From Candidatus Aquitaenariimonas noxiae (GTDB lineage: Bacteria; Omnitrophota; Gorgyraeia; Aquitaenariimonadales; Aquitaenariimonadaceae), in the NCBI GenBank assembly GCA_002780005.1, contig PEWV01000032.1, positions 8,123-72,122 on the forward strand: a DNA stretch of 64,000 nt. Reading direction: 5' to 3'. The notes under the pieces were generated by a model. That model saw nothing but the letters and a program-made list of their open reading frames with translations. It was not told the origin of the DNA and did no database searches. Shown here in pieces: positions 11,187 to 61,894 of this stretch. A program made the position numbers and the translations under genes. The stretch's first letter is position 1. Every line of letters starts with the position of its first letter.

Positions 11187-11189
11187 AGT

Positions 11190-26470: not shown

Positions 26471-26537
26471 ATCTATATGCACAAGACAGCTCTTTTAAGA
26501 AACACATTGAGATATAGAAATATCAAGGGATATTAAA

Positions 26538-27668
26538 ATGAAGCATTGCAAGAAATGCTTGATGCCCGATACGAGGCCCGGCTCCATCTTCGATGCAGAA
26601 GGTATTTGCCAGGCCTGCCGGAATTATGAGGAGAGAAAAAAAGTAAATTGGGAAGCAAGAAAAAAAGAGTTGCGTAGACTTTGCGATACTTACAGAAGAG
26701 ATGATGGCTATTACGATTGTATTATTCCTGTGAGCGGAGGTAAAGACAGCCATTTTCTTGTTCATACGATGAAGGTAGAAATGGGCATGAACCCAATTCT
26801 AATAACCGTAGGAGATCCGTTTACTAAAACAGAGGCAGGGGTAAGAAATTTTAAGAATTTAGGGGATACATTTAACTGTGACCATGTTTTATTCAATATA
26901 AGTGCCAATCTATTCAGAAGAGTTACGAAAATAGCATTTGAAGAGTTTGGAGAGCCTCTACGATTTGTGGAAACAGCAATATATACCGTTCCTTTCAAGT
27001 TAGCTGTTACATTAGAGGTGCCATTGATTATATTTGGAGAAAATTTTGCCTATGAATATGGGACCACGGATAAAGACGGCTACGCTGCAACGGGATATAT
27101 ATTCCAAATGTTTAAAAAAATAGATACTAATTTGTGGTTACAAAAAGGTATATCCAAGAAAGAATTTAATGCCATCACGCCACCCACAGATGAAGGATTG
27201 AGAAAGGTTAGACCCGAAGCGGTTTTTATGAGCTATTTTAGCCCTTGGAGTAGCATAACTCATCTTGAAGTTGCGAAAAGATATGGATTTAGAGATTTGA
27301 CGTATGAATGGAAAAGAGAAGGATGCGTTGAAGATTTTGAACAAATAGATTCGATGGGCTATATGGTACATTTGTGGATGAAGTACCCCAAATTTGGATT
27401 TCAGAGAACCTCTGATATCGTAAGCAGGCGCTTAAGAGAAGAAAGGCTCAGTTTGCCAGAGGCTAAGGAACTCATCATGCTCAATGACCACAAGTTAGAC
27501 AGACGCGCAATGGAAGATTTTATAAGTTTTTTAGGGTACACTCCAAAACAATTTTGGGAGATAGTTGATAAATTTTGGAACCGCGAAATATTTGAAAAAG
27601 TCGATGATGCATGGCGCTTAAAAGATTCTGCATATAAAGACGCAGCTCCAAGAGCAAAAAATGGTTAA
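26538..27668 (+). CDS. pseA: PP-loop N-acetyl-sugar amidotransferase (PseA/WbuX/LfnA family)
   Basis: N-terminal CxxC...CxxC and the PP-loop SGGKDS motif, at a length of about 375 aa. This is the family that forms acetamidino derivatives of nonulosonic/hexosaminuronic sugars. Confidence 0.7.
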   Translation: MKHCKKCLMPDTRPGSIFDAEGICQACRNYEERKKVNWEARKKELRRLCDTYRRDDGYYDCIIPVSGGKDSHFLVHTMKVEMGMNPILITVGDPFTKTEAGVRNFKNLGDTFNCDHVLFNISANLFRRVTKIAFEEFGEPLRFVETAIYTVPFKLAVTLEVPLIIFGENFAYEYGTTDKDGYAATGYIFQMFKKIDTNLWLQKGISKKEFNAITPPTDEGLRKVRPEAVFMSYFSPWSSITHLEVAKRYGFRDLTYEWKREGCVEDFEQIDSMGYMVHLWMKYPKFGFQRTSDIVSRRLREERLSLPEAKELIMLNDHKLDRRAMEDFISFLGYTPKQFWEIVDKFWNREIFEKVDDAWRLKDSAYKDAAPRAKNG

Positions 27669-28302
27669 GGTTACCGTGCAGTTGAAAAAGTGGAAAAATA
27701 AGGTTGGTAAAGAGTATACCGATAGAAATAGTATTTCTTTAAATGATTTAGAAAAATTATACAAAAGCAATTTTGGAATAACCAGAACGGAATTGAATAA
27801 ATTATTTTTAGGTAGAATGGGTAGGGCTATTCGAATTCTCGAAGTAGGCTGTAATATCGGGAATCAGTTGCTTTGTTTGCAAAAAATGGGTTTTAAAAAT
27901 TTATATGGAATTGAACCGCAGGATTATGCAGTAGAAATTTCTAAAAAAAGAACTAAGGGCGTCAATATTATCAAAGGCGATGTTTTCGATATGCCATTTA
28001 AAGATAATTATTTTGATCTTATTTTTACCTCAGGTGTGCTTATACACATTAGTCGAAAACACATAACAAAAGCAATAAAAGAAATTTATAGGTGTAGCCG
28101 TAAATACATCTGGGGGTACGAGTATTATTCAAAAAAACGCAGAGAGATTCCGTTTAGAGGCAAAAGAAATTTCCTCTGGAAGGCAAATTTTATTGAGATT
28201 TATACAGATATTTTTCCTGATTTAAAACTCATAAAAGTTAAGTACCTCAAATATCTGAAAAACGATAATATGGATACAATGTTTCTTTTTAAGAAGGTTT
28301 AA
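27661..28302 (+). CDS. Class I SAM-dependent methyltransferase (pseudaminic-acid-biosynthesis-associated methylase type)
   Basis: Motif I (ILEVGCNIGNQL) and motif II/III (FDLIFTSGVLIHI) in an approximately 210 aa protein embedded in the pse operon. Confidence 0.7.
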   Translation: MVKVTVQLKKWKNKVGKEYTDRNSISLNDLEKLYKSNFGITRTELNKLFLGRMGRAIRILEVGCNIGNQLLCLQKMGFKNLYGIEPQDYAVEISKKRTKGVNIIKGDVFDMPFKDNYFDLIFTSGVLIHISRKHITKAIKEIYRCSRKYIWGYEYYSKKRREIPFRGKRNFLWKANFIEIYTDIFPDLKLIKVKYLKYLKNDNMDTMFLFKKV

Positions 28303-28308
28303 TAGCCG

Positions 28309-29172
28309 ATGAAAGTAGGAGCTATAATTCAAGCAAGAATGTCTTCGACAAGATTACCAGGTAAAGTTTTGAAAGAACTTCCTTATAATAGCGGCATTAC
28401 CGTCTTAGAGCAAGTAATTAGAAGATTAAAAAAGTCTAAAAACCTAAAGAAGATCGTAGTTGCTACTACAACTGAAAAAAGCGACAAGGTAATTATTAAT
28501 ATTGCAAAAAAAGAAAATATAAGATGTTTTAGGGGAAGCAAAGAAGATGTTTTGTCAAGATATTATTTTGCTGCTAAAGAGAACGATTTGGATGTTGTCG
28601 TAAGAATAACGGGTGACTGCCCTTGTGTCGATCCAGAAATCGTAGATTTAATTATAACAAAACATATAGAAGCCGAAGCCGATTTTACTACAAATTGCTT
28701 TAAAAGAACATATCCGCATGGATTAGATGTGGAATCATTTAACTTTAATATATTGAAAGAGGCCCATGCGAACGCTCATAACGCTTACGAGAAAGAACAT
28801 GTAACCCCCCATATTTATGGAAACCCCAATGTGTATAATATTATTCAAGTAGAAGCTCCTCGGGATCTTTATGCGCCTAAAATACGAATAACATTAGATA
28901 CCGAAGAAGATTACGCATTATTATGTGTGATATTTGACCACCTTTATATAAAAAATGAATATTTTAACGCTTATGATATCGTAAATCTTTTCAAAGAAAA
29001 ACCTTGGCTTTGTCTGATAAATAAAAAAAGCCTACAGAAGAAAGCATATAATTCATTTAAGGAAGAATGTCAACAAGCTATTAAAGCACTCGATTTACAT
29101 GGTCTAAAAAGAGTCAGCAATTTTCTTAGAAAACAATTGAATGAAGATCATAATCTTAACCGAAGGCGGTAA
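28309..29172 (+). CDS. pseF: SpsF/PseF-type cytidylyltransferase (CMP-pseudaminic acid synthetase-like)
   Basis: N-terminal nucleotidyltransferase motif (AIIQARMSSTRLPGKVLKEL) of the acylneuraminate cytidylyltransferase superfamily. Confidence 0.75.
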   Translation: MKVGAIIQARMSSTRLPGKVLKELPYNSGITVLEQVIRRLKKSKNLKKIVVATTTEKSDKVIINIAKKENIRCFRGSKEDVLSRYYFAAKENDLDVVVRITGDCPCVDPEIVDLIITKHIEAEADFTTNCFKRTYPHGLDVESFNFNILKEAHANAHNAYEKEHVTPHIYGNPNVYNIIQVEAPRDLYAPKIRITLDTEEDYALLCVIFDHLYIKNEYFNAYDIVNLFKEKPWLCLINKKSLQKKAYNSFKEECQQAIKALDLHGLKRVSNFLRKQLNEDHNLNRRR

Positions 29173-30094
29173 AAATATAGGTTTTGGTCATATCGCGAGA
29201 TGTCATTCTTTATATCAGGCCTTCCGCGAAAATGGATATTCACCAGAACTTATAATATTTAGCGATAATAGCATTGAAGGATTGTTAGACCACGCCCAGT
29301 ACCAAATCGTAAACTGGCTTAAAAAGCCCCATATTGTTTTTCAACTATTAAAAAGTGCTACCATGGCTATTATTGATTCCTACTTAGCAAAGAAATCTCT
29401 ATATTATAAAATTTCAGAGATAATGAATGGCAGGGTGGTAGCAATAGATGATTATAATAGAGTGGAATATCCAGCTGGAATTGTGCTTAATCCTTCTCTA
29501 TATGGCAATCGATTACATTATTCCAAAAGAGAAGGCGTAACATATCTATTGGGAAAAGATTATATACTGCTGCGAAGAGCTTTTTGGAATATCCCAAAGA
29601 AACACATTAATAGAAAAATTAGAAATATTTTAATTACCTTTGGCGGAACCAACCGCCATCGCTTGATTAACACAGTAACCCATTTTCTTAAAGAAGAATT
29701 TAACTGTAACTTCTACACTATTGGACCCCAGAAAAACATACATGACGCTCATGGCACGCTTAATTTAATGCTAAAAGCCGATATCTGCATTTCCGGCGGT
29801 GGCCAGACTATTCATGAATTAGCACGAGTTGGAGTGCCTACAATTGGAATCTGTTTTGCTGAAAACCAAAGGTATAGCTTACAAGAATGGCGCGATAGAG
29901 GATTTATTGAATATATAGGTTGGCATAAGAATAAGAAACTGTTATCTGATTTATCGAAGGGCATTAAGAAACTCAAGTCCCATAAGAAAAGATGTCAGCA
30001 ACATAAAATAGGAAAAGCGCTTGTGGACGGGAAGGGCGCAATGAGATTATTAAAAGTATTGGCTAATAAAAGATGGATAGGAAATATAGGTTGA
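29141..30094 (+). CDS. pseG: UDP-2,4-diacetamido-2,4,6-trideoxy-beta-L-altropyranose hydrolase PseG
   Basis: PseG signature (GGKNIGFGHIARC), a GT-B-like C-terminus (ISGGGQTIHELARVGVPTI), and a position between pseF and pseH. Confidence 0.8.
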   Translation: MKIIILTEGGKNIGFGHIARCHSLYQAFRENGYSPELIIFSDNSIEGLLDHAQYQIVNWLKKPHIVFQLLKSATMAIIDSYLAKKSLYYKISEIMNGRVVAIDDYNRVEYPAGIVLNPSLYGNRLHYSKREGVTYLLGKDYILLRRAFWNIPKKHINRKIRNILITFGGTNRHRLINTVTHFLKEEFNCNFYTIGPQKNIHDAHGTLNLMLKADICISGGGQTIHELARVGVPTIGICFAENQRYSLQEWRDRGFIEYIGWHKNKKLLSDLSKGIKKLKSHKKRCQQHKIGKALVDGKGAMRLLKVLANKRWIGNIG

Positions 30095-30579
30095 AAATAA
30101 GAGAAGCAACAATGGAAGATTGTTATGATATGTGGATATGGAGGAATCGTCCAGCAGTAAGGAAATGGTGTTTTGATGCAAAAAAGATTAGTTATAAATC
30201 CCATAAAGAGTGGTTTGGAAAAGCGCATAATGACAAATATGTAAGAATATATATTGTTGAGAATGTAAAGAAAGAAAAAATAGGAACCGTGAGGTTTAAA
30301 ATAAAAATAAATAGACAAAATTGCGCCTATCTTAGTGTTTATCTAAACTCTCTTTTCTTGGGAAAAGGTTTTGGTCATAGGATTGTTAAAAAAGCTACTG
30401 ATTTTTTTCTCAAAGAGAAAGAGGGGGTTACGCATATTATCGCTGAAGTCTTTGAAGACAATATCGCCTCGCAGAGGGTATTTGAAAAAGCAAGTTATGT
30501 TTTAGTGAAAAGAATGACAAAGCAGAATAAGAAAATAAAAGTTTTTATGTATGAAAGAGGCTATGGATTTGGATATTAA
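30073..30579 (+). CDS. pseH: GNAT N-acetyltransferase PseH (UDP-4-amino-4,6-dideoxy-N-acetyl-beta-L-altrosamine N-acetyltransferase)
   Basis: GNAT fold motifs (LGKGFGHRIVK) in an approximately 165 aa protein located between pseG and pseI. Confidence 0.75.
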   Translation: MDRKYRLKIREATMEDCYDMWIWRNRPAVRKWCFDAKKISYKSHKEWFGKAHNDKYVRIYIVENVKKEKIGTVRFKIKINRQNCAYLSVYLNSLFLGKGFGHRIVKKATDFFLKEKEGVTHIIAEVFEDNIASQRVFEKASYVLVKRMTKQNKKIKVFMYERGYGFGY

Positions 30580-31591
30580 ATTTTTAAAAAATTGTTTTAT
30601 TGTCACCGAAATTTCTGCCAATCATTGTCGGAATTTTAAACAGGCGATTGCTTTAATAAAAAAAGCAAAGGAGTGCGGTGCTGATGCGGTGAAATTCCAG
30701 ACGTATACTCCAGACACTTTAACTATAGATGTAGATAATAAATATTTTAGGATAAAACACCCTAAATGGAAAGGGCAGACACTGTATCAATTGTACAGAA
30801 AGGCATATACGCCTTGGTTGTGGTTTAAAAAGTTAAAAAGGATAGCAGATAGCTTAGGGATTATATTTTATTCTACCGCTTTTGATAAAACTAGTGTTGA
30901 TTTTCTGGAAGAATTAAATGTGCCTATACATAAAATCTCCTCATTTGAATTGGTTGATTTACCTTTAATTGAATATGTTGCCAGGACAAAAAAACCGCTT
31001 ATGCTATCAACTGGAATGGCAACCTTATCCGAAGTTAAAGAAGCAGTTAATGCCGCGGAGAAAGCGGGAGCAAAAGATATAATTTTATTAAGATGCGTTA
31101 GCAATTATCCTGCCAAGCCAGAAGAAATGAATTTAAAAACCATTCTACATATGCAAAAGTTGTTTAAATGTCCTATTGGACTTTCAGATCACACATTGGG
31201 AATAGCGGTGTCACTTGCGGCAGTTTCCCTGGGTGCAAAAGTAATAGAAAAACATTTTATCCTATCGCGGAATATTAAAACACCAGATAGTTTTTTTTCC
31301 ATTGAGCCACAAGAACTATTAGAACTTGTTAGGAATATAAGAATTGTTGAGAAATCTTTGGGTAGGGTACATTATGGATCAACCGAAGGCGAAACAAAAA
31401 ACAAAGTTTTCAGGCGTTCTCTTTTTATAGTGAAAGATATTAAAAAAGGAGAAAAATTTACTGAAGAAAATATAAGGTCTATAAGACCAGCATATGGGAT
31501 CCATCCAAAATATTTTAAACATGTTATAGGCAAGAAAGCAAAAAGAGATATTAAAAAAGGCGCGCCTTTAAAATTGGAATTAGTGAGTTAG
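30551..31591 (+). CDS. pseI: Pseudaminic acid synthase PseI (NeuB-family nonulosonic acid synthase)
   Basis: NeuB TIM-barrel signature (EISANHCRNFKQAIALIKKAKECGADAVKFQTY...KISSFELVDLPLIEYVA) and a C-terminal SAF/antifreeze-like domain. Confidence 0.85.
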   Translation: MKEAMDLDIKFLKNCFIVTEISANHCRNFKQAIALIKKAKECGADAVKFQTYTPDTLTIDVDNKYFRIKHPKWKGQTLYQLYRKAYTPWLWFKKLKRIADSLGIIFYSTAFDKTSVDFLEELNVPIHKISSFELVDLPLIEYVARTKKPLMLSTGMATLSEVKEAVNAAEKAGAKDIILLRCVSNYPAKPEEMNLKTILHMQKLFKCPIGLSDHTLGIAVSLAAVSLGAKVIEKHFILSRNIKTPDSFFSIEPQELLELVRNIRIVEKSLGRVHYGSTEGETKNKVFRRSLFIVKDIKKGEKFTEENIRSIRPAYGIHPKYFKHVIGKKAKRDIKKGAPLKLELVS

Positions 31592-31709
31592 CGATAAGCG
31601 TTAGTTAACTTTTTCAAATATTTCTTGAAATTTTATAAGCCGTTTAGAAAAAAAGCTCTTTTTTATAAAACCCCTAATGATGACCAAAGAAAACAAAGGG
31701 AATTTATAG

Positions 31710-33422
31710 ATGGATTTATCCTTTTTCAAAAGATTTATAGAGTCATCGCCTACGCTATGGCGATTTTTGAGCAGAATTAGATTAATTTTAAATGGGCAAC
31801 CTCGATGGAAACCGGTGTTGGATAAAGATAGAACACGGTGGACCACATATATTAAGAAAGCAAAATTAGGGCCAAATATATTGATTGCAACAAGTTTAGG
31901 CTCTCATTTAGCAGCATCGAGATTGGAGAGTTTACTTGCAGTTGCTTTAACATTACGAGGGGCCTCGGTTTCTATTTTGCTATGTGATTCTGCTTTGCCA
32001 GCATGTCAAGAAGCAGATGTCGGGAGGTGTCCAAACAGAAAACATTTTATCCGCTATGGCCCACGAAGAGATTTGTGTATAGGGTGTTTTTCGCCGGCGT
32101 ATAAGATGTATCGATCTCTCGGTATCAATGTCTTTCGATATAGCGAATTTATTACAGCGGATGAATTAGCCAATGTCCATAATATTTCATCTACATTACC
32201 GCTTGAAGACATTCAGAATTATAGATTGGATGGTTTATCCATTGGGGAGCATGCCTTGGCGGGAGCGCTGAGATTTTTGGCCAGAGGGACACTTGACAAC
32301 GAACCTTATGCAGAATCAATTCTGCGGCAGTATCTCAAAGCTGCCTTAATAACTGTTTATGTTATGCAGCATCTACTAGAAAAAAGCCATTTTGAGCATG
32401 CGGTATTTCATCATGGAATTTATGTTCCTCAAGGATTAATTAGAGAGGTGTGTCACCACTCTGGCGTCCGAGTGGTTAATTGGGATCCAGCATATCGAAA
32501 AAACTGCTTTATTTTTGGTCACGGTGATAATTCTTTTCGCACTATTATGACAGAACCCGTAGAAAAATGGATAAATATTCAATGGGGTTCTGGGTTAGAA
32601 ACAGAGTTGATGAGATATCTAAAAAGTCGTTCATATGGTACTCAAGATTGGATTTGTGTTCATCATAAAACTTCTAAAGAAGACTTAAATACTATCGCTG
32701 CTAAAATAGGGGTAGATTTTTCAAAACCTTGTATTGGCATGCTTACTAATGTAATGTGGGATGCACAGATCTACTACCAAAATAATATATTTAAGAATAT
32801 GTTGGAATGGGCCTTGGAAACAATTGAATATTTTGCAAAACGTCCCGAGTTGCAACTGCTGGTCCGCGTACATCCAGCAGAAATTCTAGGTATCATGACT
32901 TCTAAGCAGCTGTTTATTGAAGAGATAAAAAAAGTTTTTCCTGTATTGCCGAAAAATGTCTTTATTATTCCACCCGAAAGTCCAATCAGTACTTATGCGG
33001 CTATGCTGCAGTGTAATGCTGTAATTATTTATTCCACAACAGCAGGGATGGAACTGGCAGCTTTAGGAATTCCTATAATTGTTGGGGGTGGGACCTGGTT
33101 TCGAAATAAAGGGATTGGAATGGCAGCTGATTCTAAGGAAGATTATTTCAGGCTACTTAACCGGTTGCCTTTAAAGCACCGATTAAAAAATGATTTAATT
33201 GAGCAGGCACGGAAATATACATTTCACCTTTTCTTTCGGAGAACGATTCCTATAAAGTTTGCGAAAGAATCTGTTTTTCACTCTTTTGTACAGACCCCAT
33301 ACGTGATAAATGTACAGAATATCAGTGAATTATTGCCGGGCCAAGATAAAGGACTTGATATAATTTGTGATGGCATACTTTATGGGAAAGATTTTATTTA
33401 TCCTGCAGAATTATATATATAG
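31710..33422 (+). CDS. Large (570 aa) soluble protein of unknown function immediately downstream of pseI; candidate nonulosonic-acid transferase / surface-carbohydrate biosynthesis protein
   Basis: No family motif I can assign confidently. It is Cys-rich near the N-terminus (CDSALPACQEADVGRCPNRKHF...CIGC) and has a Gly-rich loop near the C-terminus (GIPIIVGGGTWF) suggestive of a GT-B-like fold. The assignment rests mainly on operon position. Confidence 0.35.
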   Translation: MDLSFFKRFIESSPTLWRFLSRIRLILNGQPRWKPVLDKDRTRWTTYIKKAKLGPNILIATSLGSHLAASRLESLLAVALTLRGASVSILLCDSALPACQEADVGRCPNRKHFIRYGPRRDLCIGCFSPAYKMYRSLGINVFRYSEFITADELANVHNISSTLPLEDIQNYRLDGLSIGEHALAGALRFLARGTLDNEPYAESILRQYLKAALITVYVMQHLLEKSHFEHAVFHHGIYVPQGLIREVCHHSGVRVVNWDPAYRKNCFIFGHGDNSFRTIMTEPVEKWINIQWGSGLETELMRYLKSRSYGTQDWICVHHKTSKEDLNTIAAKIGVDFSKPCIGMLTNVMWDAQIYYQNNIFKNMLEWALETIEYFAKRPELQLLVRVHPAEILGIMTSKQLFIEEIKKVFPVLPKNVFIIPPESPISTYAAMLQCNAVIIYSTTAGMELAALGIPIIVGGGTWFRNKGIGMAADSKEDYFRLLNRLPLKHRLKNDLIEQARKYTFHLFFRRTIPIKFAKESVFHSFVQTPYVINVQNISELLPGQDKGLDIICDGILYGKDFIYPAELYI

Positions 33423-33431
33423 AATTTAAAG

Positions 33432-34763
33432 ATGAAAGAAAATCCTAAGATTGTCATTATCGGCTCTGGTCCCTGTGGAATAGGTGCGGGATGGCACCTT
33501 TTTAAAAATGGATATAATAATTGGGTAATCTATGAGAAAAATGCCTATCCGGGGGGGTTATCAGCAAGTTTTAAAGATGCAAAGGGTTTTACCTGGGATA
33601 TAGGAGGGCATGTTTTATTCTCTCATTATAAAGAGTTTAGTGGATTTTTAGAAGAGGTCTTAGAAAAAAAATATTTAGTACATAATAGAAACTCCTGGGT
33701 TAGGGCGATTGAGAGCTGGATTCCATATCCATTTCAAAATAATATCCATTATTTACCTCAAAAAGAGTTTGAAGAATGTTTTAAAGGTCTTGAAGAACGT
33801 TCCTGTGGGATTTGCAAAGTAAGTAATTTTCAGGAATGGATAGAAACTAACTTTGGTAAAGGGATTTCAAAATATTTTATGATATCGATGAATCAAAAAA
33901 TGTGGTCTTATCCTTTAGACAAGATGTCCACGCAATGGATAGATGAAAGGATAAGCCCTGTAAGCTTAGAAGCAATAAGGCAGAATATGAAGGGCAATAA
34001 AATAGACAGTAGCTGGGGACCAAATAGTACTTTTATCTACCCTTTTTTTGGTGGTATAGGCGAGGTCTTCAGAAGAGCGGTAGTTAAATTCAGGGATAAG
34101 GTGAGGCTAGAAAACCAAGTTTATAAAATAGATTTAGACTCTAAAAAAATATTTTTTAAGAATGGAATGGAAGATAAATTTGATATTTTAGTAAACACCT
34201 CGAACCTTATAGATTTCATTAATATTCTCTACCCACAAAATCCCAGCATTGTCAAAGCTTCAAAAAGACTAAAATACAATAGGCTCTTTATCGTAGGCAT
34301 TGGTCTTAGGAGAGAAAGAAAAGACCCAAGAACCTGGATATATTTTCCTGAAGAAAAATATATTTTCTATAGGGTAACTAACCTCTCAAATTACTCACCT
34401 TATAATGTTCCCAATGGTCATATGCAGAGTTATTCTTCTTTGCTTACAGAGATTACCTTGTCCGAAAATGCACCGGCGAATAGAAAATTCTTTATAGAAG
34501 AAACTGTAAAGGGCTTGATAGATACAGGTATGCTCTCAAAAGCTGATGAAAGTTTAATAGAAAGTATTTTTTCCTTAGAGGTAGAAAATGCTTATCCTAT
34601 ACCCACAGTAGACAGGGATGAGGTTCTATATAAAATTAATGAATTCCTTGAGTCTCAAAACATCTATTCCCGAGGTAGATTTGGTTCCTTCAAGTATGAG
34701 AGGGGGAATATGGATGACTGTTTTATGCAAGGATTTGAGATTGCCCACAGAATGGTGATTTGA
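33432..34763 (+). CDS. FAD/NAD(P)-binding oxidoreductase (amine-oxidase / UDP-galactopyranose-mutase-like fold), paralogue 2
   Basis: Dinucleotide-binding motif (VIIGSGPCGIGAGW...EKNAYPGGL). It is paralogous to the ORF at 21923-23236. Confidence 0.6.
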   Translation: MKENPKIVIIGSGPCGIGAGWHLFKNGYNNWVIYEKNAYPGGLSASFKDAKGFTWDIGGHVLFSHYKEFSGFLEEVLEKKYLVHNRNSWVRAIESWIPYPFQNNIHYLPQKEFEECFKGLEERSCGICKVSNFQEWIETNFGKGISKYFMISMNQKMWSYPLDKMSTQWIDERISPVSLEAIRQNMKGNKIDSSWGPNSTFIYPFFGGIGEVFRRAVVKFRDKVRLENQVYKIDLDSKKIFFKNGMEDKFDILVNTSNLIDFINILYPQNPSIVKASKRLKYNRLFIVGIGLRRERKDPRTWIYFPEEKYIFYRVTNLSNYSPYNVPNGHMQSYSSLLTEITLSENAPANRKFFIEETVKGLIDTGMLSKADESLIESIFSLEVENAYPIPTVDRDEVLYKINEFLESQNIYSRGRFGSFKYERGNMDDCFMQGFEIAHRMVI

Positions 34764-35776
34764 AAATGAAGTTTTCTATAATAATTCCTGTGCACAACGA
34801 GCAAGATAAGCTGAAACCCTGCCTGGACGCTATATTTTCTTCCGAAACCAAAGATTTCGAAGTTATTGTCGTAGATGATAAAAGTACCGATAAATCTGTT
34901 GAAATTGCTGAAATGTATCCCTGCAAATTAATAACCCTGGGGGAAAATAAAAGGGCAGCTTATGCAAGGAATATAGGAAGAGCTAATTCTGAGGGCGACA
35001 TTTTTGTATTTATAGACGCCGATGTAATAATAAAAAAAGATACTTTAGATGTCATATGGCAGAGTTTCAAAGAAAATAATGACATAGCTGCTGTCACCGG
35101 TATTCTTTCTAAAGACTGCCCTTATAAAAATTTTTTCAGTCAATATAAAAATCTCTATATGAATTATGTCTTTAGAAAATGCCCGAAATATATCGATTTT
35201 CTCTATGGCTCAATTATTGCTATAAAGAAAGAACATTATTTGCCGTTTAATGAGGGGTTTAAAATTACCGACGATACAGAGCTAGGGCAAAGATATAAAG
35301 AATTAAATAAAAAAATACTCTTAAACCCTAGCCTAGAGGTAATACATAGTAAAAGGTATAATTTTAAGACAATTATAAAAAACGATTTTTTTGTTCCGTT
35401 CTGGTGGTCAAAGTCTTTCATATTGCACAGGGGTTATTGGGATATTTTTCGAAAGAAAAGATTTGCCCATGCCCGAGTAAGCCAGATAATAAGCGTTTTG
35501 GTGTCATGTTTTTTGCTCATCTCTTTATTTTTTCAATGGAATCCAATAGCACGGCACATCTTTCTTAGCCTTCTATTTTTATTCATACTTCTGAGTTATA
35601 ATTTTTTTCTTTTTCTATATAAAGAGAAAGGTTTTCTATTCTTGCTAAAATCTATTATATTTACATATCTAGATATGTTGGTAATGGGCTTAGGAATATT
35701 AACAGGGTTTATCGATTGTTTGGTTAAAGGTTTCTGTAAGAGAAGTAAGAGATTGTTTAAAACTTCAATACAGTGA
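34760..35776 (+). CDS. Family 2 glycosyltransferase with C-terminal transmembrane helices
   Basis: GT-A motifs (IIIPVHNEQ...VVDDKSTD...FIDADV) followed by a hydrophobic C-terminal third. Confidence 0.75.
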   Translation: MKMKFSIIIPVHNEQDKLKPCLDAIFSSETKDFEVIVVDDKSTDKSVEIAEMYPCKLITLGENKRAAYARNIGRANSEGDIFVFIDADVIIKKDTLDVIWQSFKENNDIAAVTGILSKDCPYKNFFSQYKNLYMNYVFRKCPKYIDFLYGSIIAIKKEHYLPFNEGFKITDDTELGQRYKELNKKILLNPSLEVIHSKRYNFKTIIKNDFFVPFWWSKSFILHRGYWDIFRKKRFAHARVSQIISVLVSCFLLISLFFQWNPIARHIFLSLLFLFILLSYNFFLFLYKEKGFLFLLKSIIFTYLDMLVMGLGILTGFIDCLVKGFCKRSKRLFKTSIQ

Positions 35777-35826
35777 CCGAGTAATCAATTGCAATTATTC
35801 TTAAAAAATATAATTATGTTAAGATA

Positions 35827-36969
35827 ATGCCTAAACTAAAAATTCTTTTTATAACCGAATACTACCCTTACGAAGAAAACATCAGAGGTCTGTTTATTAA
35901 GGAACATGCTAAAGCGGCAAGTCTCTACAATGAGGTGATAGTAATTAATGGTTTAGAGGTTGAAAAACCAACAAAAAAATTATATAAAATCAATGACACA
36001 ATAAATGGAGGCATTAGAGAAATACATATATGCTACTATGCACCAAGGCCCTTCCCAAAAATTTTCTATCCTGTCTATTTATGGGCTTTACTCAAAATTG
36101 TCAAAAAATTGTTGAATGAAGGCTTTATGTTTGATGTTATTCATGCACATGAATATTTTTCTGCTTTTCCGGCTATATTATTGAGCAGATATTTTCGGAT
36201 ACCGCTAGTAATCACCGAACATTTCAGTTACTTTCCATTAGGAGCGATGAAAGGCTTGAAACTTTTGAAAGCACGATTGGTAATGAATCGGGCAAATGTA
36301 ATATTGCCGGTAAGCTATGCGCTGCAGAAAGCTATTGAGGGTTGTGGTATTCGCGGTAATTTTGAGATAATTCCCAATACTGTAGATACTCGTCTGTTCT
36401 ATACGAGTAGAAAAAAAGATGAAGATAAACAGATGAAAAAAATATTGTTTGTAGGTTTGCTCAAACCTACAAAAGGCATTTTTTGTCTCATTGAGGCTTT
36501 AGCGAAAGTTAACGAGATGCGGCATGATTTTAAACTGGATATAGTTGGAGATGGACCATGTCGAGCAATACATGAAAGACAAGCAAAAGATTTAGGGCTT
36601 GAAGACAAAGTTATTTTTCATGGGTTAAAAACTAAAAAAGAGGTTAGTCAATTTATGATGGAAGCAGATTTTTTTGTTTTACCTAGCGAATGGGAAAATC
36701 TGCCGTGCGTCTTGATTGAAGCAATGGCATCAGGTTTGCCTGTTATTGCGACCAAAGTAGGCGGTATTCCTGAAATGGTAACCGAGAAGGCCGGAAAATT
36801 AGTGTCGCCTAAGAATTCCAATGCCCTGGCAGAGGCAATAAATTATATGCTGGACCACTATATAGATTATTCATCCGAAGAAATTGCCATGTATGCAGAG
36901 GAAAGATACAGTTATAAAACGGTGGGGAAGGCTTTAGATAGGGTGTATAGAGATTTAAGCAAAGAGTAG
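35827..36969 (+). CDS. Family 4 (GT-B, retaining) glycosyltransferase
   Basis: C-terminal EX7E-type motif (PSEWENLPCVLIEAMASGLPVIATKVGGIPEMV). Confidence 0.8.
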   Translation: MPKLKILFITEYYPYEENIRGLFIKEHAKAASLYNEVIVINGLEVEKPTKKLYKINDTINGGIREIHICYYAPRPFPKIFYPVYLWALLKIVKKLLNEGFMFDVIHAHEYFSAFPAILLSRYFRIPLVITEHFSYFPLGAMKGLKLLKARLVMNRANVILPVSYALQKAIEGCGIRGNFEIIPNTVDTRLFYTSRKKDEDKQMKKILFVGLLKPTKGIFCLIEALAKVNEMRHDFKLDIVGDGPCRAIHERQAKDLGLEDKVIFHGLKTKKEVSQFMMEADFFVLPSEWENLPCVLIEAMASGLPVIATKVGGIPEMVTEKAGKLVSPKNSNALAEAINYMLDHYIDYSSEEIAMYAEERYSYKTVGKALDRVYRDLSKE

Positions 36970-37030
36970 CTAATATGCAGAATGCAATCATGACAGATAC
37001 GCATAGGTGATAGAATCTTAAAAGATTAAA

Positions 37031-38587
37031 ATGATAAAAGTGTGTTTAATCTCTTTATATGAAGATATAAGTTCTAATGGGATACGATACTTATCTTCAT
37101 ATTTAAAATCTAACGGCGTTGCAGTAAATATGATATTTATGCCTGCAGATATTTCTGATTTTTGTTATAAAGGAAAAAATGATACAAAGAAAGAAATAAA
37201 CATATTAAAGAACTTATTAAATCAGCTTTCCCCCGATCTGATAGGAATAGGTGTTATGGCTAATTATTTTAACAGAGCAGTTCGCATAACAACAGAAATA
37301 AAGAAAGATTTTGATATTTCTGTTATTTATGGAGGTATTCATGCAACAATGTGCCCTGAAGAATGTTTGGAATATGCAGATATAGTCTGTGTAGGTGAAG
37401 CTGAAGAAACGATGACAGAGTTGTGCAAGTCTAAAAATAATCCAGATGCATTAAGGGATATTAAAGGGATATATTACAAACTAGGTGATAAAGTAAAAAA
37501 GAACGAAATTAGGCCTTTAGAAGAAGATTTAGATAAATATCCTTTTCCAGATTATTCGTTAACGGGAGACTTCTTGATTTTAAATAATAAGCTAGAGCGT
37601 ATTCAAAAGAATCACATGGAGAGCTTATTACCTTTGCATCCTTTTGGTGTTGTCACATATAGGCTGATGAGCTCTCGAGGATGTCCTTTTTCATGTACAT
37701 ATTGTTGTAATGAGGCACTTCGGCAAATCTATTCTGGAAAAGGGAAATATCTCAGAGAGAGAAGTGTAAAAAATGTTATTAATGAAATGCTGACTGTAAA
37801 AAATAAATTTAATATACAGGCTTTTCGGATTATGGATGATTCTTTTTTACATCATTCTCTTGAGTGGTTTAAAGAATTCAATAAACTGTATAAATCTAGC
37901 GTTAATTCGCCATTTAGTTGCTTATCAAGTCCCGGCAATGTAACTGTTGAAAAAATGAAGCTATTAGTCGATTCCGGCTTAAGACATATTCAAATAGGGT
38001 TGCAGAGTGGAAGCGATAGAATTAACTTCGAGCTCTATAAAAGAAAGATAAGCAGCGAAAAAACGCTCGCGGTGCTCAACATAATTAATTCACTAAATCC
38101 AAAGCCAAAGGTAGACTTAGATATTATTTTCGATAATCCTTTTGAATCTGATTTAGATAAGATTCAGACAATATATTTTCTGTGTAAAATAAACAAAATG
38201 CAAAATGTGCTATTAGCCTGCTATAGTTTAGTTTTTTATCCTAAAACACAAATATATTATAAAGCAATAGAAGAGGGCATTATCCATGAGAAAGATAGGA
38301 AGAAAGCATATACTCAAGATTTCAGAAAGATTAAGAATACTTTTTTAAATAATTTATGTTTAGGTGCTTCACTTTACAAGTTTTCACCTAAATCGGTTAA
38401 TTTCTTTTTAAAATATAAAGTCTTATATTTCCCTTTTCTGATAGCACAAAAAGCTATTTCTTTCATAAAAAAATTACTTAGTTTTTCACGTAATGTACGA
38501 AGAAGAAAAAGCAAAAAACTCCCACTATTATCCTCAACATTAATAACAAAAACAATATTCCTTGACTCAAAGTTAGAAAAGACATAG
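37031..38587 (+). CDS. Cobalamin (B12)-binding-domain radical SAM protein
   Basis: N-terminal B12-binding Rossmann-like domain (IGIGVMANYF...VIYGGIHATMCPEE) followed by the radical SAM CxxxCxxC motif (SSRGCPFSCTYCCNE). Confidence 0.8.
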   Translation: MIKVCLISLYEDISSNGIRYLSSYLKSNGVAVNMIFMPADISDFCYKGKNDTKKEINILKNLLNQLSPDLIGIGVMANYFNRAVRITTEIKKDFDISVIYGGIHATMCPEECLEYADIVCVGEAEETMTELCKSKNNPDALRDIKGIYYKLGDKVKKNEIRPLEEDLDKYPFPDYSLTGDFLILNNKLERIQKNHMESLLPLHPFGVVTYRLMSSRGCPFSCTYCCNEALRQIYSGKGKYLRERSVKNVINEMLTVKNKFNIQAFRIMDDSFLHHSLEWFKEFNKLYKSSVNSPFSCLSSPGNVTVEKMKLLVDSGLRHIQIGLQSGSDRINFELYKRKISSEKTLAVLNIINSLNPKPKVDLDIIFDNPFESDLDKIQTIYFLCKINKMQNVLLACYSLVFYPKTQIYYKAIEEGIIHEKDRKKAYTQDFRKIKNTFLNNLCLGASLYKFSPKSVNFFLKYKVLYFPFLIAQKAISFIKKLLSFSRNVRRRKSKKLPLLSSTLITKTIFLDSKLEKT

Positions 38588-38690
38588 CGATAGTTGTGAT
38601 ATCGATATTATTGTCTTATCTAACGATGAGGAGATTCCTTGACGCCGAAAAGGAGCTATCGAAAAATATTGAAAAGCTAACTTTATGTAG

Positions 38691-39758
38691 TTATAAATTT
38701 ATTTTTGAAAAAATCTTTGAAATAATAGGAACACGGACCTCTCGATAAAATCCTAACCTGTTGCATTCTCTACAACTAGGCAAAGAGCCCCTTTTTATCT
38801 CTTTTCTTAGCTTTACGCGTCTTTCAGAAAACCAAATCTCCGGCCCATCAACTAGGCAGTTCCCATATTCATAGTAATATAAAAATTCGCATGGAAAAAA
38901 GTTTCCCCAAGGGTCTATAAGAATGGTTGTTTTAGTCCTGTTGCAGTCGCGATATAGCAGAGGACATAATTTATTTAATAGATACCTGAGGCACTGTTCA
39001 ATTTTTATAAAGAGTACATTTCGATTTGTTTTTTCTTTGTAAGTTCTCAAAAGATAATAATATCTTGACCAAATTTCCTCTTTTTCTTTAAGCGTAAGCA
39101 GCAAGCAATCCGGGTCTATGGCTCTATGGCATCCTATTCTTTTGCCTTCGAAGTAAGTATCTTTTAAACTTTTATTAAAATCGACCAAAAAAAGTAATTT
39201 AAAATCAGCGTTTTTTTCTTTTGCAAACAGATACATTTCTTTTAAATGAATATAATTTTTTTTAGACATTACAGGCCATATTGATACCACGGGATGTTGC
39301 TTGTTTTGTTTTTTCTTCTCTTTCTGGAGAGCATCTATTCCTTTTGATGCTTCTAAAAAAGCCCCTTTTCCTCTCATTAAATCATGATATTTTTCCGGGC
39401 CGTCTATTGAAAACCTTATGCGGTGAAGTTCGCCTTTAACTAATTCTTTTGCCACGGACTCATTTATTAAAGTTCCATTGGTAACAATTTCCGTGAACGC
39501 TGAAGGAGAAATTTCCCTGATTATTTCTGGCAGGTCTTCTCTTAGCAGGGGTTCACCGCCCAAAAATCTGACACAATTGACACCAAAATGAGATTTATAA
39601 GTTTTGAAAGTATCAATAATCTCCTTGGTGGTTAATTCCGGCTTGTCGCTACGTTCATCGAGCTTCCATACATTGCACATTCTGCACCTAAGATTGCACT
39701 TGTATGTGATATCAAACGTTAAAGTTGTAGGGTAGCCCCGGCTTTTATTTTTTATCAT
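38691..39758 (-). CDS. Radical SAM protein with a SPASM/twitch-type C-terminal Cys-rich domain
   Basis: CNLRCRMC radical SAM motif, GGEPLL glycine-rich SAM motif, and a C-terminal CxxC...CRECN cluster. It is paralogous to the truncated minus-strand ORF at 63339-64000 (shared SIDG.E..HD.MR...GAF block). Confidence 0.75.
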   Translation of the reverse strand: MIKNKSRGYPTTLTFDITYKCNLRCRMCNVWKLDERSDKPELTTKEIIDTFKTYKSHFGVNCVRFLGGEPLLREDLPEIIREISPSAFTEIVTNGTLINESVAKELVKGELHRIRFSIDGPEKYHDLMRGKGAFLEASKGIDALQKEKKKQNKQHPVVSIWPVMSKKNYIHLKEMYLFAKEKNADFKLLFLVDFNKSLKDTYFEGKRIGCHRAIDPDCLLLTLKEKEEIWSRYYYLLRTYKEKTNRNVLFIKIEQCLRYLLNKLCPLLYRDCNRTKTTILIDPWGNFFPCEFLYYYEYGNCLVDGPEIWFSERRVKLRKEIKRGSLPSCRECNRLGFYREVRVPIISKIFSKINL

Positions 39759-39801
39759 ATTATTATCCTAACCTTATTTTAAGCCTCTAAGCCCGAGTAT
39801 C

Positions 39802-39908
39802 AATATAGCACAGAGATAGTTGTAATTTCAATAAATTATTGATATGTTACAGCTGGCGATAAAGATGGAAAATATTACATTGAAACCGTGTCTATTTTGT
39901 GATATATT
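39802..39908. promoter_or_regulatory. Divergent near-consensus sigma70 promoter pair between the two radical SAM genes
   Basis: Plus strand: TTGAAA (39880-39885), 17 bp spacer, TATATT (39903-39908). Minus strand: TTGAAA (rc, 39826-39831), 18 bp spacer, TATATT (rc, 39802-39807). Confidence 0.5.
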
Positions 39909-39941
39909 AATTGCGAAAAAGGGGTATCCTAGTTTAACAAG

Positions 39942-41208
39942 ATGGCAGATGTAATTTTATTCCAACCAAAAACGTCTAAAGGATCGGCGAAAGAACTACT
40001 TTCCAGAGCCCCCGTAGGGTTATTATTTGTAGCAGCCCCCTTGGTTAAAAATAATTATAAGGTTAAAATCATAGATCAGGAAACAGATATCTATTGGCTT
40101 GATGAATTGAATAAGGAGCTAAATGATTCGACAATTTGTGTAGGAGTTTCTTCAAGGACCGGCAGGCAGATTTCAGAAGGATTAAAATTTTCCAAAATCG
40201 TCAAAGATAGATATAATATACCGATTGTTTGGGGGGGGCGTACACCCAAGCATGTTGCCAGAACAAACAATCATGAACAGTTTAATTGATATTGTAGTTA
40301 GAGGCGAAGGAGAAGAATCATTTTTAAAAATTGTCACAGCGTTAAAGTGTGGTAATAGCCTTAATGATATACCGAATATCTGGTGGAAAGATAATGATAA
40401 AGTTTATTCAACACCAACAGATGGACTTATCAATCTAGACAACCTGCCCCCATTACCCTACCAATTGTTGGACTTTGAAAAATATATTGAAATACCGCAA
40501 ACCAATCTTCCAAATTGTAAACGTATTATTGAGGTATATACAGAGAGGGGATGCTGCCATAGATGCGGGTTTTGCTATAATATTAATATGCATCAATGTA
40601 AATGGCGAGCGCTTGCAGCTTCTAAGGTCGTGGAGCAAATAGAATGCCTTGTTAAAAATTTTGTATTGGATGGGATTAATTTTAATGCTGATAATTTTTT
40701 TGTAGACAAAAAGAGAGTAGCTGATATTTGCGCAGGGATTATAAAAAGAAAAATTAAAATTTCTTGGCAAGCTGGCTGCAGAATAGATTATTTTGCCAGA
40801 TATGATAATTCATTTATCGATTTATTAATAAAAAGTGGTTGTCGTAAGTTAAATTTTGGACTTGAGAGCGGTTCGCAAAGAATATTAAATTTGATACAAA
40901 AAGACATGAATTTAGACGACGTTTTTAAGGTTAACGCAAAATTGAAGAAATGGCAAATAAGAGTTGATTATGATATTATGGCCGGTTTCCCGGAGGAAAC
41001 CAAAGAAGAGGTGTTGCAGACTTATAAGATTATGTTTAGGTTACATCATGAATATCCAAAGGCAACGTTTTTTGGACCGTATATATATACACCCTATCCC
41101 GGGACACCCTTATACGACAAGTGTCTGGAAATGGGATTTAATCCTCCGGAGAGACTTGAAGATTGGGAAATTTTGAATGGTGTGGGAAAACATATTTATC
41201 ATTCATAA
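39942..41208 (+). pseudogene. B12-binding radical SAM protein split into two ORFs (39942-40289 and 40225-41208) by a frameshift in a G8 homopolymer (40231-40238); a G7 tract restores a continuous protein (...NIPIVWGGVHPSMLPEQ...)
   Basis: The N-terminal ORF is a B12-binding domain and the downstream ORF carries the radical SAM motif (ERGCCHRCGFC). Removing one G fuses them at the conserved GGVHP motif. This is either phase variation or a homopolymer sequencing error. Confidence 0.7.
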
Positions 41209-41500
41209 ATCCTAGCTATTCAAAATGGTTAAAGAAAAGCGCTAGTATACTTAGATTATCTTTTATTCATGTTAAGGGCCTACAGTGGATGGGATGGTGG
41301 TTTAAAGTTAGGGCAAAAATAATTATTAAGTTTAATATAATTGGACCGATACCCGAGGAAAAAGTAATTCATTTTGCCAAAATTATAATTGCTTTTGTTA
41401 AAAAATTATTGAGGGTAAAATAATTAAAATTAATTCTAAGATTACGCCTGGCAAAAAAGAGAGATGGAAGGAATTATAAAGCCATGCTTAGAAGGAGACA

Positions 41501-42760
41501 TTGGTTTATAATAAAATTATCAAAGGTAACATCGGTAAAATCCTGCCATATTACATTTTACGCCAAAAAACGATAGAAAAAATGAATAAAAAGGTTTGTA
41601 TCATTTACCTCTCTTATTTAAAGTGGGATATTCGTATTAGAAAACAGATTGTAACCTTAAAAAAGGAAGGTTATGACATTGCCAAGGTTGGAATTATAGA
41701 TTCAGTTTCAGTTATTGAGGGAGTTGACAGTTTGCCGTTATCTTTCAGTTGGTCACGTATGCTTTCTTTGCTGGAAATGGTTTGTAAAGGTTTACAACTT
41801 GTGGTAGGAAGGATTTTTGAATGCGTATATGAAAGAATCTATCGGAATAAATATTTTGAGCAAATATTTCAAGTCTTAAGTGATAAAAAATTTGACCTAT
41901 ATATAGCAAACGATTTGAACTCCTTGCCCCCAGCGATCGAACTTAAAAAGAAGAATGGCGGAAAGGTGTTATTCGATGCCCACGAATACAGCCCTCTACA
42001 GTTTGCGAATAGGTGGTATTGGAATTTTTTAATATTTCCTTATAGGGATTATTTATGCAAAAAGTATCTTCCTCAAGCTGACTATATGATAACTGTGTGT
42101 GATTCATTGGCTGATAAATACCATAAGGAATACGGAGTCAAATCAGAAGTTATAAGAAATATTCCTTTTTATTGCCGTGTTGATTTTAAGAAGACAAATC
42201 CGTCTGGAATAAGAATGGTTCATCATGGGGTAACCTCAAGTGCTCGGAGGCTTGAGAATATGATATACCTGATGAGGTTTTTAGATTCTAAATTCACGCT
42301 TGATTTTATGTTGTTAAATGTTGATAAAAGCTATATTAAAAAATTAAAAGGATTAGCAAAAAATGTCGCGCCTGATAGAATAAGATTTAAAGACACCGTA
42401 CCGCCCCATGATATAATAAAAACATTGAAAAACTATGATATAGGTATATATCTCTTGGGGGCTTATAACTTTAATCTTAAATACGCGCTACCCAATAAGT
42501 TTTTTGAGTTTATGATGGCAGGCCTATGCGTTGTTGCAGGTACTTCACCCGAAATGGGGAAGATTATTAACCAGTATAACTTTGGTATATTTGTTGATAA
42601 AATTGACTATAGAGAAACGGCAAAAGTGATTAATCAATTAAGTAAAGAAGAGATAGACCAGATGAAAATGAATTCGCTTTCTGCTGCTAAAGAATTGAAT
42701 GGAGAGTTAGAAATGAAGAAATTTAGTGAAATTGTCACTAATTTGTTAGAAAAAAAGTAA
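41501..42760 (+). CDS. Putative glycosyltransferase (GT-B-like, family 4-related); the start is likely the internal ATG at 41582 (MNKKVCIIY)
   Basis: An N-terminal region typical of GT-B N-domains (KVCIIYLSY...), a C-terminal nucleotide-sugar-binding-like region (FEFMMAGLCVVAGTSPEMGKII), and a glycan-island context. Confidence 0.5.
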   Translation: MVYNKIIKGNIGKILPYYILRQKTIEKMNKKVCIIYLSYLKWDIRIRKQIVTLKKEGYDIAKVGIIDSVSVIEGVDSLPLSFSWSRMLSLLEMVCKGLQLVVGRIFECVYERIYRNKYFEQIFQVLSDKKFDLYIANDLNSLPPAIELKKKNGGKVLFDAHEYSPLQFANRWYWNFLIFPYRDYLCKKYLPQADYMITVCDSLADKYHKEYGVKSEVIRNIPFYCRVDFKKTNPSGIRMVHHGVTSSARRLENMIYLMRFLDSKFTLDFMLLNVDKSYIKKLKGLAKNVAPDRIRFKDTVPPHDIIKTLKNYDIGIYLLGAYNFNLKYALPNKFFEFMMAGLCVVAGTSPEMGKIINQYNFGIFVDKIDYRETAKVINQLSKEEIDQMKMNSLSAAKELNGELEMKKFSEIVTNLLEKK

Positions 42761-42792
42761 AAACATTAAATGAGAGTGCTAGTTTCACTCTA

Positions 42793-43680
42793 ATGAGAAT
42801 ATCAATATTAATTATAACTCATAACAGGGGCGATGATTTAAAGATATGTTTAGATTCGTTAGTAAAACAGTCAAGAAAGGCAGATGAAGTAGTCATAATA
42901 GATAATGGCTCGACAGGCGGAACAAAATCCGTTATTGATTTTTTTAAGGATAAACTGCCTATAAAATATTTTTATGAATCCACTAGCTCTATACCTAAAT
43001 CGAGAAATATGTCTTTAAGAGAAGCTAGCGGTGATATATTAGCTATCCTTGATGATGATTGCATAGTAGAGAATGATTGGACGGAAAATATTGAGTTCTA
43101 TCATAGAAAGTATCAAGCTGTCGCCATAATCCAGGGAAGGGTAATCCCTCTAGAGGCTTCTAGTTTGGTAGGGAAGACGTATATAGCGGCTGCAGAAGCC
43201 TATATAGAAAGGAATTTTTTTGCTGGGAAAAGCCAGGATTCAGAGGTTGAGTTGCCAAGAATAATCAATGGTTTCATTTCTCTAAAAAAAGAGGAGGTGA
43301 ACAGATTAGGCATTTATTTTAAAGAGGAATTTCCATTTTTTTCCGATAAAGAATTCGGCATAAGATTGCAAAAGATAGGCACTAAAGTTCTCTATGCGCC
43401 TAGCATACTAATATACCATAAGTATAAATTTAAGTCGTTTTTTGCTCTTTTTGTACGATATTTCCGTATGGGCAGGATAGATTCAAAGCTAAAAAAAATA
43501 TATGGAAGTTTTGAAATTAACCCAGGCTTGAGTCAATTATATCAGACGGCAGCGGTTATCATGGCTGATAAACGCGTTCGTTATATGGCAAAAATAATAA
43601 TGGTGTCAGCATATGTTTTAAGGTCGATCTCCTATGCTATTGGGTATTGTTACCAAAATTTAAGACACTGGTTCAAATAA
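42793..43680 (+). CDS. Family 2 glycosyltransferase
   Basis: GT-A motifs (ISILIITHNRGDDLKICLDSL...VVIIDNGSTGGT...ILDDDC). Confidence 0.75.
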   Translation: MRISILIITHNRGDDLKICLDSLVKQSRKADEVVIIDNGSTGGTKSVIDFFKDKLPIKYFYESTSSIPKSRNMSLREASGDILAILDDDCIVENDWTENIEFYHRKYQAVAIIQGRVIPLEASSLVGKTYIAAAEAYIERNFFAGKSQDSEVELPRIINGFISLKKEEVNRLGIYFKEEFPFFSDKEFGIRLQKIGTKVLYAPSILIYHKYKFKSFFALFVRYFRMGRIDSKLKKIYGSFEINPGLSQLYQTAAVIMADKRVRYMAKIIMVSAYVLRSISYAIGYCYQNLRHWFK

Positions 43681-43799
43681 TATTAGACTACAATGTGCTG
43701 GATGTTAGAAATTTAGCAGGTGAATTACAGCTGGCAGTAGTTTTGATATTAAAACAAAACCATCTGAGATTGTCGGTATCACTTTTTAGATTTTTATCT

Positions 43800-43874: not shown

Positions 43875-45011
43875 ATGAGAAAAAAATATTTAATGACACC
43901 AGGACCTACACCTATCCCCCCGGAGGTTTTACTGGAAATGGCAAAACCTATTTTGCATCATAGGACTCCTCAATATCAGGCCATATTTAAAGAGGTGAAC
44001 GAGGGGTTAAAGTATGTTTTTCAGACATCAAATGATATTGTGACTCTGGCTTCAAGCGGTACGGGTGCGATGGAGGCGAGCATTGTTAATCTATTATCAA
44101 AAGGCGATAAGGCGATTGTCATACGGGGAGGAAAATTCGGAGAAAGATTCGCAGAAATATGCTCCGCGTATGGAGTCGAAGTCATCCCTATCGACATACC
44201 TGAAGGAAATGCCCCGCAGGCGCCTATAGTTCGCGACACGCTGGCAAAGAATCCGAAGGCAAAAGCGTTATATGTGAATTTGTGCGAAACGTCTTCAGGC
44301 TCGGTATATGACATAAAATCCATCGCCGAGATTACCAAAAAAACTTCTACGGTATTAGTGGTTGACGCGATAAGCGGATTGGGCGCAGACGATATTCAAA
44401 CCGACAATTGGGGAGTCGATATCGTTGTATCCGGCTCTCAAAAAGGCTTGATGATGCCTCCCGGTTTGGCATTTTTAGCGATTAGCCAAAAAGCATGGAA
44501 GGCTATGGAATCCTCAACGCTCCCGAAATACTATTTTGATCTAAAGAAAGCGAAAAAGGCGCTGGATAAGACAGATACCCCGTTCACCCCTGCAGTTTCG
44601 CTTGTTATAGGCCTTAGGGAAGCGCTTCGCATGATCAAGGAAGAGACAGCCGAGAAAATGTTTGCAAGGCACAAAAAGTTGGCAGATGCCACAAGAGAAT
44701 CCGTCAAGGCATTGGGTTTGGAGCTTTTTTCTAAATCCCCGTCAAACGCAGTTACTGCGGTAAAAGTCCCTGCCGGCATAGACGGCGAAAAACTCGTTAA
44801 GAATTTAAGGGACGTTCACGGTGTGACCATAGCTGGAGGGCAAGATGAGCTTAAAGGAAAAATTTTCCGCGTAGCCCACCTGGGATTTATGGAAAAATTT
44901 GATGTTATTACGGCAATATCGGCCATAGAGATAGGATTGAAAGAATTAGGCTACAAATTTGAATTGGGAAGTGGAGTGAAGGTTGCCGAAAAAATGCTGG
45001 CGGAGGGATAA
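43875..45011 (+). CDS. serC: Class V aminotransferase, phosphoserine aminotransferase (archaeal/SerC-type) or serine-glyoxylate aminotransferase
   Basis: Class V aminotransferase fold with PLP-lysine context (VVSGSQKGLMMPPGLAF) and serA immediately downstream. Confidence 0.7.
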   Translation: MRKKYLMTPGPTPIPPEVLLEMAKPILHHRTPQYQAIFKEVNEGLKYVFQTSNDIVTLASSGTGAMEASIVNLLSKGDKAIVIRGGKFGERFAEICSAYGVEVIPIDIPEGNAPQAPIVRDTLAKNPKAKALYVNLCETSSGSVYDIKSIAEITKKTSTVLVVDAISGLGADDIQTDNWGVDIVVSGSQKGLMMPPGLAFLAISQKAWKAMESSTLPKYYFDLKKAKKALDKTDTPFTPAVSLVIGLREALRMIKEETAEKMFARHKKLADATRESVKALGLELFSKSPSNAVTAVKVPAGIDGEKLVKNLRDVHGVTIAGGQDELKGKIFRVAHLGFMEKFDVITAISAIEIGLKELGYKFELGSGVKVAEKMLAEG

Positions 45012-61867: not shown

Positions 61868-61894
61868 AAGCACTGTTTTAATTAATCCCTTGTC

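Follow-up and report, generated by a model that had tools for sequence, protein, structure and literature searches.

In Candidatus Aquitaenariimonas noxiae, a gene for a cobalamin-dependent radical SAM enzyme in a surface-glycan island is broken by one extra G in a homopolymer tract. The tract is out of frame on all of the contigs that cover it, which makes this a disabling lesion throughout the sampled population. Our preferred reading, to which we attach a rough probability of 0.58, is that of an accessory glycan gene that was recently inactivated, with a slippage-prone tract now drifting in length and a neighbouring gene that is starting to decay. We infer loss of function, with slippage as the mutational mechanism, to be the most likely course. 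The features are collected in Table 1, where the window is the whole 64-kb stretch of DNA that was analysed.

Table 1. Features of the frameshifted gene and its surroundings (positions in the window).
Feature	Position	Strand	Basis or remark
Whole frameshifted gene, cobalamin-dependent (class B-type) radical SAM, ~493 aa when repaired	39942..41423	+	Translation, Pfam, orthologue colinearity
N-terminal fragment ORF, 115 aa (PIU41837.1/COS99_03435)	39942..40289	+	Exact protein on 21-23 contigs
G8 tract on the W-G-G codons, +1 insertion, length-polymorphic (G8/G9)	40231..40238	+	In-frame form TGG GGG GGC = G7
Downstream ORF, 327 aa: remaining B12-binding domain and radical SAM core, C204-x3-C208-x2-C211	40225..41208	+	
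1-nt deletion private to this assembly	41167..41168	+	Comparison with other contigs
C-terminal tail, in a third frame in the window only, aligning to orthologue C-termini	41163..41423	+	
Radical SAM/SPASM neighbour, 355 aa here, divergently transcribed	38691..39758	-	Pfam, contig comparison
Control tract, in-frame G7 inside intact gene 33432-34763	33551..33557	+	Length constant in 11 covering contigs

The run of eight G was reported in a preliminary description, which took the two ORFs flanking it to be the halves of a single enzyme and G7 to be the in-frame length. That they form one enzyme is borne out by Pfam and by colinearity with orthologues, but they are not clean halves, as the break lies inside the B12-binding domain. 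The ORFs overlap at the tract in different frames. Deleting one G fuses them, so that the junction reads ...IPIVWGGVHPSMLPEQ...; the repaired reading across the tract is ...YNIPIVWGGVHPSMLPEQT... and the peptide across the junction is IVWGGVHPSMLPEQ. In the repaired protein, PF02310 (B12-binding) matches residues 24-128 with 44.1 bits (gathering cut-off 32.1), and PF04055 (Radical_SAM) matches residues 202-362 with 51.5 bits (gathering cut-off 29.5). Only in the repaired translation are the B12-binding domain and the CxxxCxxC radical SAM core both present. The frameshift point is at residue 98/99, about three quarters of the way through the B12-binding domain and off the domain boundary, and the 115-aa fragment accordingly consists of about three quarters of that domain and then 17 out-of-frame codons. 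An ATG lies at 40252, 13 nt past the tract, and gene callers predict a 390-aa product; in all other contigs the downstream ORF reaches its natural stop at that length. NCBI gives it as 40252-41208 (COS99_03440, PIU41838.1, 318 aa) and lists this and the N-terminal fragment as "hypothetical proteins". In annotation, COS99_03435 and COS99_03440 belong together as fragments of a single frameshifted gene.

The combination of an N-terminal B12-binding Rossmann domain and a CxxxCxxC radical SAM core is that of TokK, TsrM, OxsB, BchE and HpnJ. What sets this gene apart from them is its membership of a clade that occurs in polysaccharide clusters, together with its frameshift here. None of the NCBIfam equivalogs passes its cut-off for the repaired protein, the best being BchE at 148 bits vs a cut-off of 481, and the relatives with solved structures in the PDB (AprD4, OxsB, TokK and TsrM) are distant. 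It is a reasonable guess, and only that, that the product might methylate or similarly modify a sugar. At 39938, in the spacer between ribosome-binding site and start codon, C and T both occur (T in 4 of 11 contigs); the site lies 4 nt before the ATG with which the broken gene begins.

Exact matches of window proteins assign the DNA to the MAG of Candidatus Aquitaenariimonas noxiae (Omnitrophota, taxid 1974741); a literature search on that name found nothing. The locus recurs at >99.7% identity in many public assemblies, including ENA megahit assemblies, a SPAdes contig, Logan assemblies of SRA runs and JGI metagenomes. One related contig belongs to BioProject PRJNA229517, which is Crystal Geyser groundwater according to one paper. 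All samples appear to come from a single aquifer population, this being documented for one of them, and the contigs are not to be counted as independent lineages. Some of the assemblies were probably built anew from runs already used for others; they are independent as assemblies, but not all of them are independent as samples.

The 115-aa protein encoded by the G8 allele turns up unchanged in the output of several assemblers (megahit, SPAdes, Logan and JGI), and G8 was also read directly in the DNA of the fetched loci. A second length, G9, is present in five assemblies (ERZ27293347, ERZ27293362, ERZ27293413, JGI 3300025021 and SRR5435972); the G9 product was found on four contigs, with L025 in addition. 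A pattern scan of JGI metagenome contigs for variants of the tract from G6 to G14 returned one contig only, carrying G8. An in-frame allele, G7 or G10, is absent from every contig found (at least 26), metagenome assemblies being a record of the majority allele in which ON cells at a few per cent would go unseen. The protein collections give the same picture. When the repaired protein was compared with 5.8 billion cluster representatives, the sole 100%-identical match was the 390-aa downstream fragment, the 90% identity cluster of which holds only fragments of 318-399 aa. Among ~15 billion proteins there is no full-length protein with >69% identity to the repaired one.

Homopolymers are classic sites of error, and the window does hold one probable consensus error, at 41168 (see below), so one might suppose that the true tract is G7 and the gene intact. 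We find this scarcely credible. G8 stands on at least 21 contigs across assemblers and repositories, a separate G9 allele exists, and no assembly has G7. Those other ORFs of the window that were tested against Pfam match at full length (LeuRS, ComEC, MurJ, UvrC, SecA, Lnt, trigger factor and others), and an ORF-tiling scan of the window detected no further frame breaks; therefore, a general homopolymer error is not the cause. The extra G is real and not an assembly error.

The preliminary description also pointed to a second possible frame break near the 3' end and offered it as a sign that the gene is decaying. The break is present in the window as a 1-nt deletion. All other contigs covering the site have one base between GGG and AAA, either C (n = 7, encoding Ala) or T (n = 5, encoding Val), and most orthologues have Ala at the affected residue. 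Since the deletion is private to this assembly and falls exactly on a biallelic site, we read it as probably a consensus artefact, and the shortened 3' end of the gene in the deposited MAG probably stems from faulty assembly. Decay is the reading that fits better, but the 3' break cited for it is confined to this assembly and is probably artefactual. Population-wide, the gene has one lesion only, at the G tract. Aside from the tract, ~493 codons of AT-rich DNA stay open in every other contig with no stop codons, a point that counts somewhat against the preferred reading: either the inactivation is recent or the frame is being maintained.

Over its whole length the repaired protein is colinear with nine intact orthologues (489-508 aa, 58-69% identity), and the alignment is gapless across the junction. 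W97, G98, G99 and H101 are invariant in all nine, as are the cluster cysteines C204, C208 and C211; the repair restores these W-G-G-x-H residues. The Gly-Gly of the tract corresponds to the third element of the classical cobalamin-binding fingerprint DxHxxG...SxL...GG. The tract itself is absent from orthologues. In the orthologues whose DNA was fetched (69% and 62% identical), the W-G-G codons are TGG GGC GGT; the tract is not maintained in homologues, which are single uninterrupted ORFs containing both domains. The tract is therefore lineage-specific; it results from which synonymous codons were used for an invariant Trp-Gly-Gly and is not a conserved device. A scan of genome contigs with the repaired protein found no relative and so yielded no syntenic orthologue. 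Seven substitutions unique to the repaired protein fall at columns where the nine orthologues do not vary, a count within the range of 2-21 found for the orthologues. Some of them are radical, among them D278G, Y235C and P205C, the last in the Cys motif region beside the cluster cysteines. The neighbourhoods of the orthologues are polysaccharide clusters with Wzx-like flippases, Wzy, Wzz, glycosyltransferases and more B12-radical SAM paralogues.

The comparison with orthologues bears on two ways in which the broken gene might still function. One is that the gene has been split into two working pieces, with the 115-aa and 390-aa fragments both made, acting jointly or each alone, and the second arising by re-initiation at ATG 40252. 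The closeness of that ATG to the tract would suit such an arrangement, as would a promoter-like site upstream of 39942. We consider it highly unlikely, as the break falls at the invariant W-G-G-x-H inside the B12-binding domain and not between domains, the N-terminal fragment ends in its 17 out-of-frame residues, and the close homologues listed are all single two-domain polypeptides. The other is recoding, in which RNA polymerase slippage, or ribosomal frameshifting of +1 (on G8) or -1 (on G9), would yield some full-length enzyme. Homopolymer runs are known sites of transcriptional slippage, and the 390 codons past the tract are open in all other contigs. Set against this, efficient slippage is known from longer A/T runs, opposite directions of shift would be needed for G8 and G9, and the orthologues, being single ORFs without the tract, offer no conserved slippery site or two-frame architecture. 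Recoding is very improbable in our estimation.

In the 64-kb window (38.7% G+C), the tract is the sole G/C run of 8 or longer. Dinucleotide-preserving shuffles contain 0.98 G8 runs on average, and 53 of 100 shuffles contain at least one, with one observed. Runs of G7 or longer number 3 against 4.0 expected, so within the window there is no enrichment. The tract is notable by its location and not by its existence. The second-longest G run, at 33551-33557, lies in a gene (33432-34763) resembling NAD-binding oxidoreductases. An 11-mer, TTACAGCTGGC, is common to the upstream regions at 39847 and 43725; 10% of shuffles equal these two copies, and it was dropped.

The location is what suggests phase variation, as the preliminary description had proposed and as in the poly-G genes of Campylobacter jejuni. 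Such SSR-mediated variation would make this a contingency locus in which the tract slips at high frequency among G7 (ON), G8, G9 and G10, a minority of cells make the enzyme and bear a modified surface glycan, and OFF cells happen to dominate the samples. Several observations favour the idea. The G8 tract is within the coding region of a surface-glycan gene whose ORF is otherwise intact in all other contigs, and it satisfies the cut-off of at least 7 G/C that is usual for candidate phase variation in the Campylobacter phasome (PMC6321876). The functional analogy is strong, since Cj1295 is a poly-G gene of the flagellin glycosylation (pseudaminic acid) locus of C. jejuni (PMC3068675). The length polymorphism is natural, G8 and G9 occurring between flanks that are >99.7% identical and G9 being found on two SNP backgrounds. 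The JGI contig L007 breaks off right at the tract, as would happen with two alleles in that sample.

The length variation part of the proposal is therefore upheld, but the switch part is not, as no in-frame ON allele is found in any assembly. Neither the contigs nor the protein collection holds one, and G8 and G9 are both OFF. The orthologues have no tract, G/C tracts are not over-represented in the window, and the one further long tract, G7 at 33551, does not vary. A four-gamete/haplotype test for recurrent slippage was dropped. All four gametes are seen for pairs of ordinary SNPs as well, which makes recurrence inseparable from recombination or chimeric consensus, and recurrent slippage is not demonstrated. 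Also counting against phase variation are an excess of polymorphism in the gene and frameshifts in its neighbour, as described below. On balance we hold SSR-mediated phase variation to be unlikely, though it has real substance. More specifically, it is doubtful that a G7 or G10 minority expresses the enzyme and so alters a pseudaminic-acid surface glycan on an ultra-small Omnitrophota bacterium.

Contig ends near the tract were tried as a proxy for heterogeneity, on the basis of De Bruijn k-mer geometry; L007 alone ends exactly there, which is suggestive. A different kind of contig, L018 (JGI Ga0210031_1028646, 2.4 kb, of interest at its positions 538-2372), carries the G8 form of the broken gene up to window position 40700. 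At a junction at ~40700 it runs in frame into unrelated membrane-protein-like sequence. Either the contig is chimeric, or it represents a strain whose copy of the gene has been shortened further by a rearrangement.

The preferred reading of recent inactivation draws on the variation in the gene and beside it. Over 16.8 kb, 5 of the 12 SNP sites are in the broken gene, which makes up 8.8% of the length (binomial p = 0.0025). The density of SNPs is ~8 times the local one, with 5 sites in the 1.48-kb gene vs 7 in the other 15.3 kb. Four of the five are nonsynonymous, and a nonsynonymous majority holds in the other genes too. A dN/dS-style comparison was considered as evidence of relaxed constraint and is uninformative, nearly all population SNPs being nonsynonymous in every gene. 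The indels are more sharply localised. Among the contigs compared, all indels at 30000-43798 are confined to 38735-41168, that is, to the broken gene and the SPASM neighbour, at four sites. Two are in the broken gene (the G tract and 41168, with its private deletion), and two are 1-nt deletions within the SPASM gene. One of the latter, at 38735, is found in 8 of 12 contigs and produces a 352-aa form with an altered C-terminus. The other, at 39035, is found in 5 of 10 contigs, where it joins T6 and T3 into T9 and leaves a 250-aa form without the SPASM domain. The contigs L008 and L009 end exactly at the 38735 and 39035 sites.

The sequence of events under recent inactivation would be as follows. 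In this lineage, the conserved Trp-Gly-Gly of the B12-binding domain may have come to be encoded as TGG GGG GGC, creating G7. Replication slippage would then have added one G to give G8, shifting the frame inside the B12-binding domain and bringing a stop 17 codons on. In part of the population the tract would have slipped again to G9, and with both lengths out of frame the gene would be under relaxed constraint and its tract length drifting. That the tract acts as a switch with regular returns to ON is improbable.

The locus therefore has features in common with two known systems. Like Cj1295 of C. jejuni and the Campylobacter phasome, it has an intragenic run of at least 7-8 G, and the gene concerned is an accessory member of a cluster for pseudaminic-acid glycans. 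As in the C. jejuni poly-G genes, tract length varies between natural samples and one G switches the frame. The differences are that only OFF lengths (G8 and G9) are found here, without enrichment of tracts in the window; that the tract appears as a by-product of the W-G-G codons and is missing in orthologues; and that the host is an uncultivated member of Omnitrophota. Like homopolymer-frameshift pseudogenes, it has one inserted base in a mononucleotide run, fixed across the sampled population, together with extra polymorphism and frameshift alleles in an adjacent, possibly co-functional gene. Unlike the usual homopolymer pseudogene, it has as yet no nonsense mutations or large deletions, and its tract is still changing length. 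The gene is either at the very start of decay or still reversible.

A homopolymer frameshift in a surface-glycan gene is of a known kind, and this one is mildly unusual only in its phylum and in a polymorphism that can be read across public metagenomes. It shows a mononucleotide tract that varies in length among groundwater bacteria of one natural population, from a phylum without cultivated members, in a strain-variable pseudaminic-acid island. A literature search found no paper on phase variation (SSR) in Omnitrophota. If the tract were a true switch, the population would already contain surface variants when challenged, for instance by phage or by host recognition, and this would perhaps be the first SSR phase variation in Omnitrophota, readable from metagenome time series. 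If there are OFF states only, it is an ordinary early-stage pseudogene. The locus is a cheap and concrete target for asking, at the level of reads, whether candidate-phylum bacteria use simple-repeat phase variation.

The surface-glycan island in which the preliminary description placed the gene is well supported by its contents. PseC and PseI score above curated NCBIfam equivalog cut-offs and PseG is matched more weakly; a WbuX amidotransferase, a cytidylyltransferase and several GT2 and GT4 glycosyltransferases are also present. A second B12-radical SAM gene lies at 37031-38587. The pseudaminic-acid pathway occupies 23336-31591, with an acetyltransferase and a methyltransferase in addition to the genes just named (the amidotransferase being WbuX-type). 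Three radical SAM genes and several glycosyltransferases come next, and the whole makes up an elaborate cluster for a nonulosonic-acid glycan. Midway through the island, the 570-aa ORF at 31710-33422 has no Pfam or NCBIfam match. To the right, position 43799 is intergenic, between a GT2 gene (42793-43680) and an aminotransferase gene (43875-45011). The contigs L003, L004, L005 and L016 end exactly there, and L015 goes on into unrelated sequence. It looks like a strain-variable junction, and is probably the right-hand boundary of a variable glycan island. A tRNA search over the whole window found none. The window is otherwise tightly packed, with non-coding gaps of >500 bp at 10707-11226 and 61330-61894.
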